This document shows, piece by piece, positions 11,955 through 17,056 of a stretch of DNA of 43,321 nt (the first letter of the stretch is position 1; each line of letters begins with the position of its first letter). Made by a program: the position numbers and the translations under genes. Below the pieces are notes generated by a model, which was given only the letters and a program-made list of their open reading frames with translations, was not told the origin of the DNA and did no database searches. Origin of the DNA: an uncultured Bacilli bacterium (GTDB taxonomy: Bacteria > Bacillota_I > Bacilli_A > RF39 > UBA660); NCBI GenBank assembly GCA_944350415.1, contig CALVOY010000015.1:1-43321 (forward strand). The letters run 5' to 3'.

Positions 11955-13331
11955 TTAAAATTGTATTTGTTGATGAAGATAATCCACTACTTGTGAAACA
12001 GGAAGTGTGATTTGTTGCATCGTATCACGATTACGAATAGTAACCGTATCATGATTTAAAGTTTCTTCATCTACGGTAATACAAAATGGTGTTCCAATCA
12101 CATCTTGTCGACGATATCTTTTTCCAATATTGGCTGTTTCATCATAAGTAGTAGAAAATTCTTTGCATAGCATTTGATAAATCTCATTTGCTTTCTCACT
12201 ATGATATTTTTTCATAAGTGGCAATACTGCAACTTTATAAGGAGCTAAATAAGGATGAAAATGCATGACTTCACGAGTAGTTCCATCTTCTAAAGTCTCC
12301 TCCTCATAAGCATTATCTAAAATGGCTAATACTAGTCGATCACACCCGACTGTTGATTCTATGATATAAGGAATAAACTTTTCATTTGTTTCGGGATCTA
12401 AATATTCTTGAGAAATAGTAGAATACTCTTGATGACGACTTAAATCATAATCAGTACGATTATGAGTTCCGTTGATTTCTCCCCAACCAAAATTGAAATG
12501 ATATTCAACATCGCAAGCTTCTTTGGCATAATGTGCTAATTTTTCATGATCATGGAAACGAAGTTTCTCTGCTGAAATTCCTAAATCCATAAAATAATTT
12601 TTAGCATATTCCTTAAAGTAACGATATAGTTCGCTATCAGTTCCTTCTTTACAAAAAGTTTTATATTCCATTTGTTCAAATTCAATTGTTCTAAATGTAA
12701 AATTCCCTGGGGTAATTTCATTACGAAAAGCTTTTCCAATCTGACCGATACTAAATGGCAATTTTGCGCGCATAGAACGCTGAACATTTAAGAAATTAAC
12801 ATATTCTCCTTGGGCATTTTCAGGTCGAAGATAAATTTTACTTTTATTACCCTCAGTTACTCCTCGATGAGTTTCAAACATTAAATTAAACTCACGAATA
12901 TCAGTATAATCGCTACTACCACATTTAGGACAAGGAACCTTGTGTTTTTTTATATATTCCAACATCTCTTCTTGGGTCATACCATCCGCATGCGCATTTT
13001 CATCAAAATTATCGATCAAATTATCTGCACGATGTCTCATTTTGCAATGCTTACAATCGATCAATGGATCAGAAAAACTTGCTACATGACCACTTACTTC
13101 CCAAACTCTAGGATGCATTAATATCGCTGCATCTACCTCATACGCATTAGGTCTTTCTTGTATAAATCTTTTTCGCCATGAATCTTTTATATTATTTTTT
13201 AATTTCGCACCCAAAGGACCATAATCCCAAGTATTGGCAAGTCCCCCATATATTTCACTCCCCTGAAATATAAATCCATATTGCTTACATAAATTTACTA
13301 ATTTTTCCATTGTTAATTTTTGGTTTTCCAT
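11955..13331 (-). CDS. glyQS: Glycine--tRNA ligase, single-subunit alpha2 type
   Basis: SEIYGG..WDYGPLG, FNLMF, YLRPE.AQG, GKAFRNEITP, EFEQME and IGKRYRRQD.IGTP motifs. Start moved to ATG 13331 after AAAGGAGAG. Confidence 0.97.
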   Translation of the reverse strand: MENQKLTMEKLVNLCKQYGFIFQGSEIYGGLANTWDYGPLGAKLKNNIKDSWRKRFIQERPNAYEVDAAILMHPRVWEVSGHVASFSDPLIDCKHCKMRHRADNLIDNFDENAHADGMTQEEMLEYIKKHKVPCPKCGSSDYTDIREFNLMFETHRGVTEGNKSKIYLRPENAQGEYVNFLNVQRSMRAKLPFSIGQIGKAFRNEITPGNFTFRTIEFEQMEYKTFCKEGTDSELYRYFKEYAKNYFMDLGISAEKLRFHDHEKLAHYAKEACDVEYHFNFGWGEINGTHNRTDYDLSRHQEYSTISQEYLDPETNEKFIPYIIESTVGCDRLVLAILDNAYEEETLEDGTTREVMHFHPYLAPYKVAVLPLMKKYHSEKANEIYQMLCKEFSTTYDETANIGKRYRRQDVIGTPFCITVDEETLNHDTVTIRNRDTMQQITLPVSQVVDYLHQQIQF

Positions 13332-13333
13332 TT

Positions 13334-14185
13334 TTATCTCTCCTTTATTCCTTTTTGTTTTGGCATTTTTTCTATTTTTTGATGCATTACTTTCCATAAA
13401 TCATCAATAATAGCTGCTTTTTCCAAAGAGTGAATCAAACTATCTCCTATAATTTCAATAATTTCGCCTGAATCACATTGAATATGTAATGATAGTGTAT
13501 TCCCCCTAGAATCCATCTTATATTCATAGTGAGGATTTCGATTTAAATTACAATTAATAAAACTACGAATCAATTCTAATATTAATAGCAAATCTTCCGA
13601 ATCAACTTTTTGTTCTTTTTCCTGATAATAATAACCAAATTGTTGCTCTTTCCATAAAGAAGAAGCATATTGGTAATTATCACGGATATAGATTACATTG
13701 CTTTTAGAAGCCATAGATGGCCGAACAGTCATCCGTTTTACCATATGTTTTTCGATAGGATTTAATGCATAGGATAAGAAATCCTGTTGCTTTCTTTGTT
13801 GGTAAAATCGTAAAGTCTCTTCATACTCCAACAAAACATGTTCTGAAAAATAAAGATTTAATCTTTCCTCCTGATCATTCTGTAATCGAATTCCTTGATA
13901 CTGTTGGGATAACTTTTTAGATTGAACTCCCAAAGAAATTAATTGTTTGGCTTCTAAAAATTCTCTCTGTATTCTCTGATTTAAAATAAAAGTATTCGGA
14001 AAATCTTTTTTAAACGCTTTCAGTCTACGCAGAGAACCCTCATTGGAAAATTGAAAGCGACAACAAATAGAATCTTCCGAAAATAGAGTGTTGCCTCGAC
14101 AGACCCCTATATAAATATTAATATCGCAAGGATACATATGTATAAACTGCTCTACTGCTACCGATAAATTTTGAAACTGATTCAT
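13334..14185 (-). CDS. Hypothetical protein (orphan between the T-box leader and glyQS)
   Basis: 283-aa ORF with RBS AGAAAGGAG; ends 2 nt before the glyQS start. Confidence 0.75.
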   Translation of the reverse strand: MNQFQNLSVAVEQFIHMYPCDINIYIGVCRGNTLFSEDSICCRFQFSNEGSLRRLKAFKKDFPNTFILNQRIQREFLEAKQLISLGVQSKKLSQQYQGIRLQNDQEERLNLYFSEHVLLEYEETLRFYQQRKQQDFLSYALNPIEKHMVKRMTVRPSMASKSNVIYIRDNYQYASSLWKEQQFGYYYQEKEQKVDSEDLLLILELIRSFINCNLNRNPHYEYKMDSRGNTLSLHIQCDSGEIIEIIGDSLIHSLEKAAIIDDLWKVMHQKIEKMPKQKGIKER

Positions 14186-14199
14186 ACAATCTCCTTTCT

Positions 14200-14322
14200 A
14201 AAAAGAAAAAGATCTCCAAAATATGTAGGGACGAAATATTTCCGCGGTTCCACCCTACTTATTCTAGAAGAATCTCTTTTTTTATATTGCTCCGGTTTTT
14301 CCAGAACCATCATCACATTGAT
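14200..14322 (-). ncRNA. T-box riboswitch leader (glycyl), apparently with an ultrashort Stem I
   Basis: Minus strand: GAGCAAUAUAAAAAAAGAG-AUUCUUCUAGAAU-AAGUAGGGUGGAACCGCG-GAAAUAUU-UCGUCCCUAC. This has the antiterminator with UGGAACC bulge (14246-14252), Stem III and an A-rich linker closely resembling the B. subtilis glyQS leader; upstream of glyQS. Confidence 0.88.
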
Positions 14323-14328
14323 ATATAT

Positions 14329-14357
14329 ATTTTAATATGTTTTCTTAGATCAGTCAA
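14329..14357 (-). promoter_or_regulatory. Sigma-A promoter of the T-box/orphan/glyQS unit
   Basis: TTGACT-17 bp-TAAAAT. Confidence 0.75.
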
Positions 14358-14362
14358 TTACT

Positions 14363-17056
14363 TTAAATCGACAATGGAATAAAATAAGAAATAATAAAAC
14401 AAATGATCAAACCAATATAAACCAATAGAATAATAGATAAATAGAAAAACAAGTAAATAATATAAGCAATATTAGAAAGAATTTTTATATTTAATATTTT
14501 TTGATATAAGTTACTACGAATCAAAAAAATGGTAAACAGTAGAGTTATAATACTAATAATAGAACAAACTACTAATCCACTCGGCATATACGAAATAACA
14601 ATCTTATTATTTCCTTCATTCAATGGAATACCAATATAATTATCATAAAGTTTTAAGACTTGAACTTCTTTCCCATTATTAGTTGCGGTATATCCTTCAT
14701 TATAACTAATTGGTAAAAATAATATTTTTTCACTCTCTGTATCTACATTGATATAAATTTTATTTTTTTGATACTGAATATCGGTATCTATTTTTTCTGT
14801 TTGTATAAACTTTTCATATTTAAAATTATCCATGACGCCAATTGTTAAGCTACTTAGTGATACATCTTTTCTTAATTCTATCTTAATATTTACTTTTTCA
14901 TTTTCATAGGTACCTAAATTTAGTACACCATTATCATTTTCACTAAATGCCCTTTGACGATATAACTTATCATTGATGTATATATTAAACTTTTCATACA
15001 TAGAATAATTTTCATTATTCACTAAAGATCTCAAGACTTCTAAATAGATTGTTTGTTTACCTACAACAGTAATTTCTTTTTCAAAATAACTATAACCATC
15101 TGGATCTATCATTTCATATTGAGTATATTCCCCATCTTTAGAAATTCGGATATTATGCAAATCGAAATTTTTAATAATATCAAAAAGTCTTTCATTCGTT
15201 CCTGTGATATTCTGATATAAGCTATTAGAAATCAAGAAAGAATTGTCTTTATCAAAAATCGTATCATTATTATTCAATAAATAACCATATGAAGGATCTT
15301 CTTTTAAAGCATAAAATTTAATCGTATCATATGTATCAATTAAACTATAATATTCACTATCCAGCTCGTTTCTAGTCATAATATATTTATTGGCTAAAAT
15401 GCTGTCTAGAAAAAGATTACCACCTTTAGAGAAAGTTTTCACCCACATAGAAGAATAACCTAATTTTTTTAAACTTTCTAAATTATTTCGATCAGTAAGC
15501 GAAGTAAAGTGATCCAAAGTATGATATTTCATCACCATACCACTATTCATAATCATATTGGTTAGCTCATTCTTAACACGATAATAATCACCATCGGAAT
15601 AATCTTCACTTATTTGCCCCAATTCTTGGTACTGTTGCATAAGCAATTCCTGTTGTTGATCCAACCCCAAATAAACTAAGCTATTTGCTGCAATATGTGT
15701 AAGGGTAATCATAAAAATGAATAGGAAAGAAAAACGATTCCATTGCTTGATCAATAAAAGCACGGCAATACATCCACCAATAGCAATGACAGTAGATAGC
15801 AACAACATAAATAATAAACTATGATTAATAGAAATCGTAAGAGTTTCAATAGCTTGCTGAAAACTATTATAATTTTTATACATAATAAAGGATATCAAAA
15901 CCACTGTAATTCCTGTTGCAATAGTCGCTAATATTTTATTTTTACCTGAAATCGATACTTTCTGGTTGCCAAAATCCGAAAATCCTTGACAAGCACCTAA
16001 AATCAGCAAAAACATGGTAATAAAACCAAAGCGATACGGAAAAAAAGCATAAGAGCCAAAATGCCAAACCTTATTAATAGGTTCAATAAAAACAGGAATC
16101 ATAACAATCAAAATAGTTGGAATATAAAATAGTAAAAACTTTTTATTTTGTTTCCACTTTTTCAATAATAAAAGCAATCCAACATACATGATTCCACCAA
16201 ACATAAACATACTAACTTTATCAGTAATCGGTCCCATTTTAGAATTAAAAAGTGTTTCTAAATCCAAATCAAGCCGAGAAGAAATAGATATCTGTAGATA
16301 AGATGGAATCAGTACAAAAGAAGATAATAATAAACTAAGAACAGTAGCTATCCCTAAAGCTAAGATTGCTTTTTTTCTTAACACTTTTTCTTCTTTATAT
16401 ACAAGTAAATAAATAAAGGATGCCAGAAAAATAAAAATAATCACCATGATAGCTACATAGAAACTAAATATCAAAGCAAGAGATAATGTTACAATATATA
16501 AGGTTGGCTTTTCTAAATCCAATACTTTTTTTAATCCAATCACAATCAGTGGAAATAAATACATTACATCGATCCAAGAAGTAATTTGATACATAATGAG
16601 TGCATAGCCAGAAAAAGCATAAATAATAGCAAGTAAAACACTCAATAAATTAGGAAGTTTTTTATAAAAAGTTCTAATAAAAAATAAGCAAGTAAGACTA
16701 CAGCAAAGAATTTTAAGAGTAATAATGACAGAAACCATCAAATAAATGTCTGCTCTATCTACTAATAAAACCAAAAGACTAAATGGACTTAATATATAAT
16801 ACGCTAAAATTCCCCAGAAATTAATACCACCACTTGTAGAAAAATCGATCAATAAAGAACTGTTTCCTTTAAAACTATCATATAAATGATAATAGAAAGC
16901 AGTAATTTGATCATGCATATCTCCCCAAATAAGAGAATTATTACCAAATGGATAAATTCCTTTTATGAAAAATATGATTGTTAAAATGGTAGCTACAATC
17001 ATTGTTGTTAATAAATATGGCTTTAGCCGACTCCACAAATTTCTATTCTTTTTCAT
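14363..17056 (-). CDS. YfhO family membrane glycosyltransferase (GT-C fold)
   Basis: IYPFG...GDMHDQ, YYILSPF, IYAFSGY, FPYRF and C-terminal ISYNEGY; many TM segments; 897 aa. Confidence 0.9.
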   Translation of the reverse strand: MKKNRNLWSRLKPYLLTTMIVATILTIIFFIKGIYPFGNNSLIWGDMHDQITAFYYHLYDSFKGNSSLLIDFSTSGGINFWGILAYYILSPFSLLVLLVDRADIYLMVSVIITLKILCCSLTCLFFIRTFYKKLPNLLSVLLAIIYAFSGYALIMYQITSWIDVMYLFPLIVIGLKKVLDLEKPTLYIVTLSLALIFSFYVAIMVIIFIFLASFIYLLVYKEEKVLRKKAILALGIATVLSLLLSSFVLIPSYLQISISSRLDLDLETLFNSKMGPITDKVSMFMFGGIMYVGLLLLLKKWKQNKKFLLFYIPTILIVMIPVFIEPINKVWHFGSYAFFPYRFGFITMFLLILGACQGFSDFGNQKVSISGKNKILATIATGITVVLISFIMYKNYNSFQQAIETLTISINHSLLFMLLLSTVIAIGGCIAVLLLIKQWNRFSFLFIFMITLTHIAANSLVYLGLDQQQELLMQQYQELGQISEDYSDGDYYRVKNELTNMIMNSGMVMKYHTLDHFTSLTDRNNLESLKKLGYSSMWVKTFSKGGNLFLDSILANKYIMTRNELDSEYYSLIDTYDTIKFYALKEDPSYGYLLNNNDTIFDKDNSFLISNSLYQNITGTNERLFDIIKNFDLHNIRISKDGEYTQYEMIDPDGYSYFEKEITVVGKQTIYLEVLRSLVNNENYSMYEKFNIYINDKLYRQRAFSENDNGVLNLGTYENEKVNIKIELRKDVSLSSLTIGVMDNFKYEKFIQTEKIDTDIQYQKNKIYINVDTESEKILFLPISYNEGYTATNNGKEVQVLKLYDNYIGIPLNEGNNKIVISYMPSGLVVCSIISIITLLFTIFLIRSNLYQKILNIKILSNIAYIIYLFFYLSIILLVYIGLIICFIISYFIPLSI

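Follow-up and report, generated by a model that had tools for sequence, protein, structure and literature searches.

A candidate glycyl T-box with an ultrashort Stem I and a terminal-loop specifier upstream of glyS in uncultured Bacilli

Can a leader act as a T-box when it has neither the long Stem I that grips the elbow of transfer RNA (tRNA) nor a Stem II? The question is raised by a contig of an uncultured Bacilli bacterium (CALVOY010000015.1 of assembly GCA_944350415.1; the whole stretch of 43,321 nucleotides (nt) is called the window below). A leader of about 123 nt, counted from an inferred start near 14322, lies there on the minus strand, in a 177-nt spacer between a gene for a YfhO-family membrane protein and an open reading frame (ORF) of 283 amino acids, with glyS beyond it. 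An earlier reading of the sequence alone (the original prediction) had proposed a minimal glycyl T-box at this place, either of a new class or decayed. Our analysis confirmed that the described leader is real and beyond chance. The comparative data support its assignment to a conserved, selected class of glycyl T-boxes with an ultrashort Stem I and the specifier in a terminal loop, because the same architecture was met in 25 of the 29 genomes from the genus and, across the family, in no fewer than 112 of 151 genera, with covariation in the short stem and a conserved Gly triplet. Judged from sequence comparison, it is probable that the leader is a functional, minimal, transcription-attenuating T-box for tRNA-Gly which controls the orphan ORF and glyS.

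Elements of the leader and its T-box identity

The predicted elements are given below in the order of transcription.

14352..14357, minus strand: -35 hexamer TTGACT, the best promoter-like site of the region
14329..14334, minus strand: -10 hexamer TAAAAT, with a 17-nt spacer to the -35 hexamer
14310..14317, minus strand: 5′ strand of a kink-turn (K-turn)-like motif, namely C stem UGU, 3-nt bulge GAU and GA (motif in the sequence)
14305..14309, minus strand: 5′ strand of the specifier stem, UGGUU (RNAalifold consensus and covariation)
14298..14304, minus strand: 7-nt terminal loop CUGGAAA, specifier GGA at 14300-14302
14293..14297, minus strand: 3′ strand of the specifier stem, AACCG (RNAalifold and covariation)
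14288..14292, minus strand: 3′ strand of the K-turn-like motif, GA followed by C stem GCA (sequence and RNAalifold)
14274..14287, minus strand: A-rich linker of 14 nt, single-stranded, ending in the purine string AAGAG (14274-14278)
14261..14273, minus strand: Stem III, AUUCU/UCU/AGAAU, also the 5′ arm of the putative terminator
14259..14260, minus strand: AA linker, part of the purine string, invariant in alignments A1 and A2
14225..14258, minus strand: whole antiterminator (Rfam alignment and RNAalifold)
14253-14258 with 14225-14230, minus strand: helix A1 of the antiterminator
14246-14252, minus strand: T-box bulge UGGAACC between helices A1 and A2
14231-14245, minus strand: helix A2 hairpin of the antiterminator, with a closing G-U pair
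14211..14224, minus strand: 14-nt 3′ arm of the putative terminator, pairing with Stem III and the AA linker (14259-14273) and so extending helix A1
14200..14210, minus strand: U-run UUUUUCUUUUU, before the Shine-Dalgarno (SD) sequence

The regulatory core amounts to about 93 nt. The original prediction had named a TTGACT-17-TAAAAT promoter whose start leaves about 35 nt, a short stem of five base pairs (bp) with a K-turn-like base and a 7-nt loop carrying GGA, and an A-rich linker followed by Stem III and the UGGAACC antiterminator, and every one of these was found at the minus-strand positions that it had given. The two hexamers together have 10 of 12 matches in the promoter scan of the region, and transcription probably starts near 14322. 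In the loop, GGA is preceded by U and followed by A, an arrangement like that of an anticodon loop. The base of the leader may fold as a K-turn: the sequence fits in its 3-nt bulge and in GA opposite GA, and many relatives have a nucleotide other than G at the second position of the 3′ strand. Just after that strand the tetranucleotide UAUA (14283-14286, minus strand) is nearly invariant, its columns being invariant or at least 90% conserved in alignment A2. It is single-stranded in every predicted fold, and no partner or role was found for it.

A -35/-10 pair was detected within 50 nt upstream, at a comparable position, in 87 of 99 unique related leaders. The -10 hexamer of those 87 ends at a median of 14 nt before GAUGA, the same distance as in the window, and GAUGA is separated from the T-box motif GGUGGAACC by 58-71 nt in the 99 leaders. 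With a promoter fixed next to the K-turn and a span of this size, neither a long Stem I nor a Stem II could be accommodated. In the window itself only about 35 nt separate the putative transcription start from the 3′ strand of the K-turn, and the distal platform of Stem I is missing. No helix was predicted in the 14-nt linker, either in the window fold or by RNAalifold, and hence neither a Stem II nor a IIA/B pseudoknot. The AGAGA and GGUUGGUG motifs, which are present in other T-boxes of the same genome, were not found in the window leader. The absence of both the elbow clamp and Stem II had been predicted, and the lack of sequence room and of a linker helix bears this out.

At the gathering threshold the Rfam T-box model reported nothing in the window. 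In E-value mode the same model (RF00230) gave 41.3 bits and an E-value of 1.2e-7, the gathering score being 93, and Stem III and the antiterminator, which form the 3′ half, were aligned at high posterior probability while the Stem I half aligned poorly. A match of this 3′ half, though below the gathering score, upholds the glycyl T-box proposed earlier. The hallmarks of a T-box discriminator are all there: an A1/A2 antiterminator with a 7-nt bulge, a purine string of the form RRRxG-Stem III-AA and a G-U pair closing helix A2. The purine-string motif RRRxG ... AA flanking Stem III is defined in the review PMC7583486. The pair closing A2 is GU in 69 of 76 distinct leaders and GC in the other seven. 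The genome has tRNA-Gly genes with the anticodons UCC and GCC, and both end in U73-CCA, to which the UGGA bulge is complementary; the proposed fit between the bulge A and the U discriminator of tRNA-Gly thus holds for both genes. GGA followed by A matches the amino acid of glyS, although it lies in a terminal and not in an internal loop. The leader therefore reads as a new T-box variant, having the discriminator and specifier of a T-box and lacking the platform, a canonical terminator and an Rfam score above the threshold.

Covariation, the loop triplet and distribution among relatives

Folding of positions 14180-14325 gave a z-score of -3.66, and none of 200 shuffles was as good. RNAalifold, applied to 24 sequences of the genus, recovered the C stem of the K-turn, a 4-bp specifier stem, Stem III, helices A1 and A2 and the 7-nt bulge. 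In alignment A2 (MAFFT, 53 sequences) 92.2% of cells were paired, compared with 41-53% in slid controls. The same alignment contained 119 double-change cells against 47.9 in shuffles, and none of 500 shuffles reached 119; the sequences share descent, shuffle statistics overstate the significance, and such figures are not probabilities, which tells to that extent against our reading. The short stem, whose covariation had been named as a check, showed double changes in four of its five pairs in alignment A2. In alignment A3 (76 distinct sequences, fitted to the model and hence biased toward its structure) 93.3% of cells were paired, there were 209 double-change cells, and all five pairs of the specifier stem had double changes. 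Among the 76 distinct leaders the C-stem pairs were 100% paired, with UA/AU and UG/CG exchanges, and Stem III was paired in 98.9% of cells.

The loop triplet behaves as a codon would. The 76 distinct leaders have GGA followed by A in 68 cases and AGGGAAA, which also contains GGA and A, in one more; GGC followed by A was found in five, on at least three different stem backgrounds. The two exceptions are L092, where GGA is followed by G, and L102, which has no GG in the loop. A Gly codon, GGA or GGC, followed by A is accordingly kept in 74 of 76, which answers the check on loop-codon conservation in the affirmative. The triplet varies at its third position only, and toward the codon that matches the other tRNA-Gly. 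The loop is mostly of 7 nt, and in 72 of 76 leaders the nucleotide just before the triplet is U (a count taken from the list of loops). The anticodon loops of the two tRNAs read c-U-UCC-A-a for tRNA-Gly(UCC) and u-U-GCC-A-a for tRNA-Gly(GCC); UGGAA is the exact complement of positions 33-37 of the first and UGGCA that of the second. Pairing between GGAA of the loop and UUCU of Stem III, judged by eye, is unsupported, as the GGC variants retain an unchanged Stem III.

These observations bear on the possibility that the leader is a sensor of the tRNA 3′ end only. The 5′ hairpin would then be left over as a structural element or as a protein site, such as a K-turn for an L7Ae-type protein, and specificity would come from UGGA:UCCA pairing alone. 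Such a view suits the statement of PMC7583486 that a truncated Stem I without Stem II has barely detectable affinity for tRNA, and the K-turn-like motif is the best-conserved part of the 5′ hairpin. The single-sequence minimum free energy (MFE) folds also lean toward it: some alternative weak pairing touches part of the triplet in 21 of 66 distinct 5′ segments. A point against our main reading is that the MFE fold of the window favours an alternative 7-bp hairpin (-9.1 kcal/mol) which buries GGA and is favoured in one other leader as well (-9.0 kcal/mol). This hairpin, raised as a caveat by the original prediction, is thus real in the window's single-sequence MFE fold. As a conserved fold it was rejected, since the alternatives in the 21 segments differ from one another while the covarying structure keeps the triplet in the loop, and the comparative data decide in favour of the open loop. 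A sensor confined to the 3′ end also leaves the codon-like pattern without a cause: variation is confined to the third position, with A after it, in 74 of 76 leaders, whereas the stem below changes freely. A 7-nt loop with U before the triplet is unnecessary for a mere protein site, and full-length glycyl T-boxes of sister families have GGA and A at the homologous site beside the K-turn. We therefore consider this alternative unlikely and retain the loop as the specifier.

How widely is the short leader distributed? Within the genus, the 12-nt T-box motif occurs once, and once only, in 25 of 29 genomes, each time with the short leader in front of it; the four genomes without a match are 53-93% complete. 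In one genome of the genus (G064) no T-box was found within 1.5 kb upstream of glyS. Inspection of the surroundings of glyS in 30 related genomes showed the short leader in most members of the genus, and a full-length Stem I, with GGA and A at the homologous place beside the K-turn, at three loci of other families (L031, L039 and L040; the specifier of L039 is possibly GGG). A deletion peculiar to this strain, which was to be recognized by a full-length Stem I in close relatives, is not what these genomes contain.

A glyS-based search of named contigs gave 80 loci from gut metagenome-assembled genomes, labeled as uncultured Bacilli, Tenericutes or Erysipelotrichaceae and in two cases as Candidatus Scybalousia. 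A covariance model built from the 53 short leaders of alignment A2 (R1) matched 66 of the 80 over its whole length at 59 bits or more. R1 also gives 50-58.5 bits to full-length glycyl T-boxes from other families, and the short form was therefore counted only at 65 bits or more. When the family was sampled with one genome per genus (151 genomes), 112 genomes reached 65 bits, seven had 58-61 bits, 28 had only weaker matches and four had none. Several genera of the window's family (f1) were without a short-leader match in all genomes seen: g173 (0/9), g90 (0/3), g149 (0/2) and g31 (0/2). A sample of the order, which consists almost wholly of the window's family, had matches to R1 at E<=1e-7 in 114 of 151 genomes.

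In a class-wide sample (151 genomes including G000) R1 matched 12 of 14 genomes of the family and ten outside it. Seven outside matches were run through Rfam. Six of them, at 85-108.6 bits, are glycyl T-boxes of full length. The seventh (L203) also has the full length but carries a UGGU bulge, and on account of that bulge it is probably not glycyl. A further outside match, in G090, is full-length as well, and the remaining two are in G347 and G335. At L203 (1355-1719, minus strand, genome G378 of another family of the class) two T-box matches of 148.3 and 50.7 bits lie head to tail, possibly a tandem T-box. Among the genomes sampled, G347 and G335 apart, the short form is restricted to the window's family, and full-length glycyl leaders were found only outside it. 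The short form looks to have descended from a glyQS-type ancestor with a GGA specifier.

With such an ancestor, the leader might be nothing but the decayed, non-functional remnant of a full-length glyQS-type T-box whose upper Stem I was deleted. Its 41.3 bits, far under the gathering score, would be expected of a remnant, and the full-length leaders of sister families with GGA and A indicate that an ancestral deletion did occur. Decay would not explain why at least 112 of the 151 genera in the family retain the leader, why each helix shows compensatory changes, why the promoter keeps a fixed position or why the terminator arm co-evolves. The decayed element, one of the two options of the original prediction, is contradicted by this retention together with the covarying stem and conserved loop codon; we regard it as very improbable, and the conserved class as the better account.

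Terminator pairing and a proposed mechanism

A simple terminator scan of the window returned no canonical site; the hairpin in question has a large structured top. The 3′ arm that precedes the U-run had been described as weak, with the partner left unrecognized. Weak it is in the window, where its duplex with Stem III amounts to -8.1 kcal/mol with no unpaired base before the U-run, but the partner is the Stem III region and not the 3′ strand of the antiterminator. In 24 leaders of the genus, pairing of the arm with the Stem III region averaged -11.3 kcal/mol against -3.5 in shuffles, and pairing with the A1/A2 3′ strand -2.85 against -2.64. The 88 leaders of the family gave the same picture: -10.84 kcal/mol for the Stem III region against about -3.64 to -3.69 in shuffles, and -4.30 against -4.39 for the whole antiterminator, which is chance level. 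Pairing with Stem III outweighed pairing with the antiterminator in 86 of 88 leaders. A canonical terminator, whose arm would be paired with all of the antiterminator or with its 3′ strand, was rejected on these figures.

MFE folds of 99 leaders agree with this. In folds that stop short of the arm, 92 of 99 had both Stem III and the antiterminator formed; once the arm was included, it was paired with the Stem III region in all 99, helix A1 and a free UGGA were kept in 90, and the mean MFE changed from -9.0 to -20.8 kcal/mol. The arm, AA linker and A1 make a single continuous helix in many leaders. Variant Stem III loops or strands are accompanied by matching changes in the arm (L087, L083/L181, L126, L166/L167, L046, L146 and L170), and in one example of arm swapping the own arm gave -16.3 kcal/mol as compared with -7.7 and -7.3 for the swapped ones.

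The genome (1.18 Mb in 76 contigs, 29.4% G+C, 92% complete) carries ten other T-boxes (L001-L010, 63.8-128.8 bits). At five of them (L002, L003, L004, L005 and L008) the arm pairs with the A2/A1 strands at -10.9 to -23.9 kcal/mol, and the terminator 5′ arm of L001 and L007, read by eye, is likewise the A2/A1 strand. The arm analysis missed the terminators of four of the nine other T-boxes that were scored (L006, L007, L009 and L010) and those of L031, L039 and L040, where both arms lie partly downstream of A1. A full-length Stem I was seen in the nine of the ten whose alignments were inspected, and the distal AGAGA and GGUUGGUG motifs are present in most of these nine. The ten lie on contigs C43, C57, C39 (two), C17, C44, C21, C73, C9 and C33 of this genome (G000). 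Three of them are below the gathering score, at 85.5, 71.1 and 63.8 bits, and L006, L009 and L010 appear to be without Stem III or to have very short terminator arms.

The U-run could serve a different purpose. In translational or mixed control, the U-rich tract and sequence downstream would sequester the SD sequence and the U-run would be no part of a terminator. Known T-boxes with a short Stem I are mostly translational (PMC7583486), and the MFE fold of the window weakly pairs UUCUUUU, part of the U-run, with AAAGGAG of the SD. This pairing is known from the window's fold alone, and both the distance and the sequence between U-run and SD vary among relatives. What relatives do share is a helix ending within one base of the U-run (85 of 88) and a U-run within 32 nt of A1 (88 of 88); in several species, moreover, the leader precedes different genes, each with its own SD. 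Control at the level of translation is accordingly quite improbable, though less so than mere decay, and we continue with attenuation of transcription.

We lean toward the following mechanism, that of a new class in which a co-transcriptional decision depends on two contacts with the tRNA, through a mimic of an anticodon loop and through the 3′-end discriminator, and in which the terminator arms flank an intact antiterminator and compete with Stem III. The transcript would start a few bases before the K-turn-like motif, which bears the stem of 4-5 bp and the 7-nt loop. The loop would present GGA to the UCC anticodon of tRNA-Gly in a loop-loop contact of 3 to 5 bp, and UGGAA may pair with tRNA positions 33-37. 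Beyond an unstructured linker of about 14 nt, the discriminator (purine string, Stem III, AA, A1/A2 and UGGA bulge) would capture the 3′ UCCA end of an uncharged tRNA. When no uncharged tRNA is bound, either because there is none or because it is charged, the arm would displace the weak 5-bp Stem III; A1 would thereby lengthen into a hairpin that reaches down to the U-run, and polymerase would terminate there. With uncharged tRNA bound, Stem III and the purine string would be held on the duplex of tRNA and bulge, invasion by the arm would be blocked and readthrough would follow. We infer tRNA binding, the role of the loop, termination and readthrough from the sequences.

The review PMC7583486 offers some grounds for this scheme. 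According to it, the duplex of tRNA and bulge is where the purine string of Stem III docks, and an antiterminator without Stem III does not bind tRNA appreciably, which would make Stem III a workable switch point. It also states that glycyl T-boxes can dispense with Stem II owing to a strong G/C-rich codon-anticodon duplex, and that the terminator of a standard T-box takes its 5′ strand from the 3′ strands of A1 and A2.

A number of further points weigh against a functional attenuator of this kind. Transcriptional T-boxes generally need the elbow-binding platform, and a truncated Stem I without Stem II barely binds tRNA (PMC7583486); a loop contact of three bp alone may, on these grounds, lack the strength or the speed that a co-transcriptional decision demands. 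The UGGA bulge is exposed in the terminator fold, and exclusion of tRNA from it there is argued from the literature. The arm of the window is among the weaker ones, and 23 of 500 shuffles reach or beat its -8.1 kcal/mol. In only 16 of the 30 variant leaders does the own pairing beat both swaps. In 32 of 151 genomes of the family the short-leader model matched weakly or not at all. The matches in sequencing data are six contigs of unknown or guessed kind, with no RNA run among them.

If the proposed mechanism is true, transcriptional T-box function needs neither an elbow platform nor Stem II, and Stem III is sufficient as a control point. Knowledge of T-boxes rests on few model leaders, and this leader departs from three generalizations of PMC7583486: the long Stem I platform, a Stem II in truncated forms and a terminator built from A1/A2. 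Even so, the leader is kept, and its helices covary, in a large family of uncultured gut Bacilli with small genomes. It offers a natural test of a minimal RNA that would read both ends of a tRNA and of Stem III as a switch point, and a compact scaffold for engineered tRNA-responsive switches. The Rfam gathering threshold misses the short leaders, and so T-box regulation of glyS is left unannotated in this lineage.

Downstream genes and comparison with known systems

The genes around the leader are as follows.

14363-17056: gene for a YfhO-family membrane protein (PF09586, E 4e-114)
14191-14196, minus strand: SD sequence AAGGAG of the first gene
14183-14185, minus strand: ATG of the first gene
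13334..14185, minus strand: 283-amino-acid gene between the leader and glyS, no family match
11955..13313, minus strand: glyS, dimeric-type glycine--tRNA ligase (NF003211, 631.7 bits, cut-off 312)

The longest ORF of glyS (11955-13397, minus strand) has 480 amino acids and overlaps the upstream ORF by 64 nt. The true start is probably 13313, 20 nt past the upstream stop: the NCBIfam alignment does not begin until residue 30, and that of relatives starts from the ATG at this position. The 283-amino-acid ORF had no match in Pfam or NCBIfam. A homologue with 36% identity (E 1e-53) occupies the identical slot in one member of the genus, and none was found when the ORF was used as a query against 60 other genera. 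Identity with the 266-amino-acid ORF found in the identical slot of other species was ruled out, the two being unrelated.

In relatives the leader stands directly before glyS or before a single inserted gene. The slot is empty in many species of the genus, with the T-box motif 84-123 nt before glyS. Where filled, it holds one of three unrelated genes: an unknown family of 283/294 amino acids (13334-14185 of the window, minus strand, and L021:2056-2937), a LOG-like gene of 183-186 amino acids (PF03641; L016:2874-3428) or another unknown family of 257-266 amino acids (L027:1864-2661). The T-box-controlled operon thus appears to acquire cargo genes repeatedly. In another genome of the genus (G066) a 6S RNA was detected about 1 kb downstream of glyS (L025:376-556, minus strand; 58.7 bits, above the gathering score).

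The literature was searched for similar leaders, with subscription journals mostly outside the coverage, and within it no glycyl T-box without both the Stem I platform and Stem II, and no terminator pairing with Stem III, was found.

The closest known system is the glyQS type (Bacillus subtilis and Geobacillus glyQS; RF00230). Both are glycyl in class, target glycyl-tRNA synthetase, have no Stem II or IIA/B pseudoknot, place a K-turn, in the window leader a K-turn-like motif, at the base of Stem I with a flexible linker after it, and rely, in the window leader putatively, on an intrinsic terminator. The discriminator is also alike in its purine string, Stem III, AA, A1, UGGA bulge and A2 with a closing G-U pair. 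The glyQS type, however, has a Stem I of about 100 nt with an elbow platform, whereas the window leader lacks the upper Stem I and with it the S-turn of the specifier internal loop, the AG bulge and the distal loop. The specifier is in a 7-nt terminal loop here and in an internal loop there, and the 3′ arm of the terminator is predicted to pair with Stem III and the AA linker here, in contrast to the A1/A2 3′ strands there.

A second likeness is with tRNAs themselves. Those with complementary anticodons form loop-loop 'kissing' complexes of two 7-nt anticodon loops. The loop of the leader resembles such a partner in its 7 nt, with U at position 2, the triplet at positions 3-5 and a purine at position 6, and would face the anticodon loop of tRNA-Gly. 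Unlike in those complexes, one partner here would be an mRNA hairpin on a putative K-turn, and a U-turn, or a contact of more than 3 bp, is only putative.

The third system is the short or ultrashort ileS T-box of actinobacteria (TBDB class II; Mycobacterium and Nocardia), which combines a K-turn, K-turn-like in the window leader, with a short specifier element and, like the window leader, has no platform. It has a Stem II S-turn and a IIA/B pseudoknot for tRNA binding, neither of which is present in the window leader, and the 2023 Nat Commun study of the ileS T-box stresses the role of Stem II and the pseudoknot. Its control is translational, through a sequestrator of the SD, whereas the window leader has a Gly specifier and a helix followed by a U-run. 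The leader of the window thus joins a trait of glyQS, the absence of Stem II, with a trait of the actinobacterial leaders, the absence of a platform, and has a terminator topology different from both.

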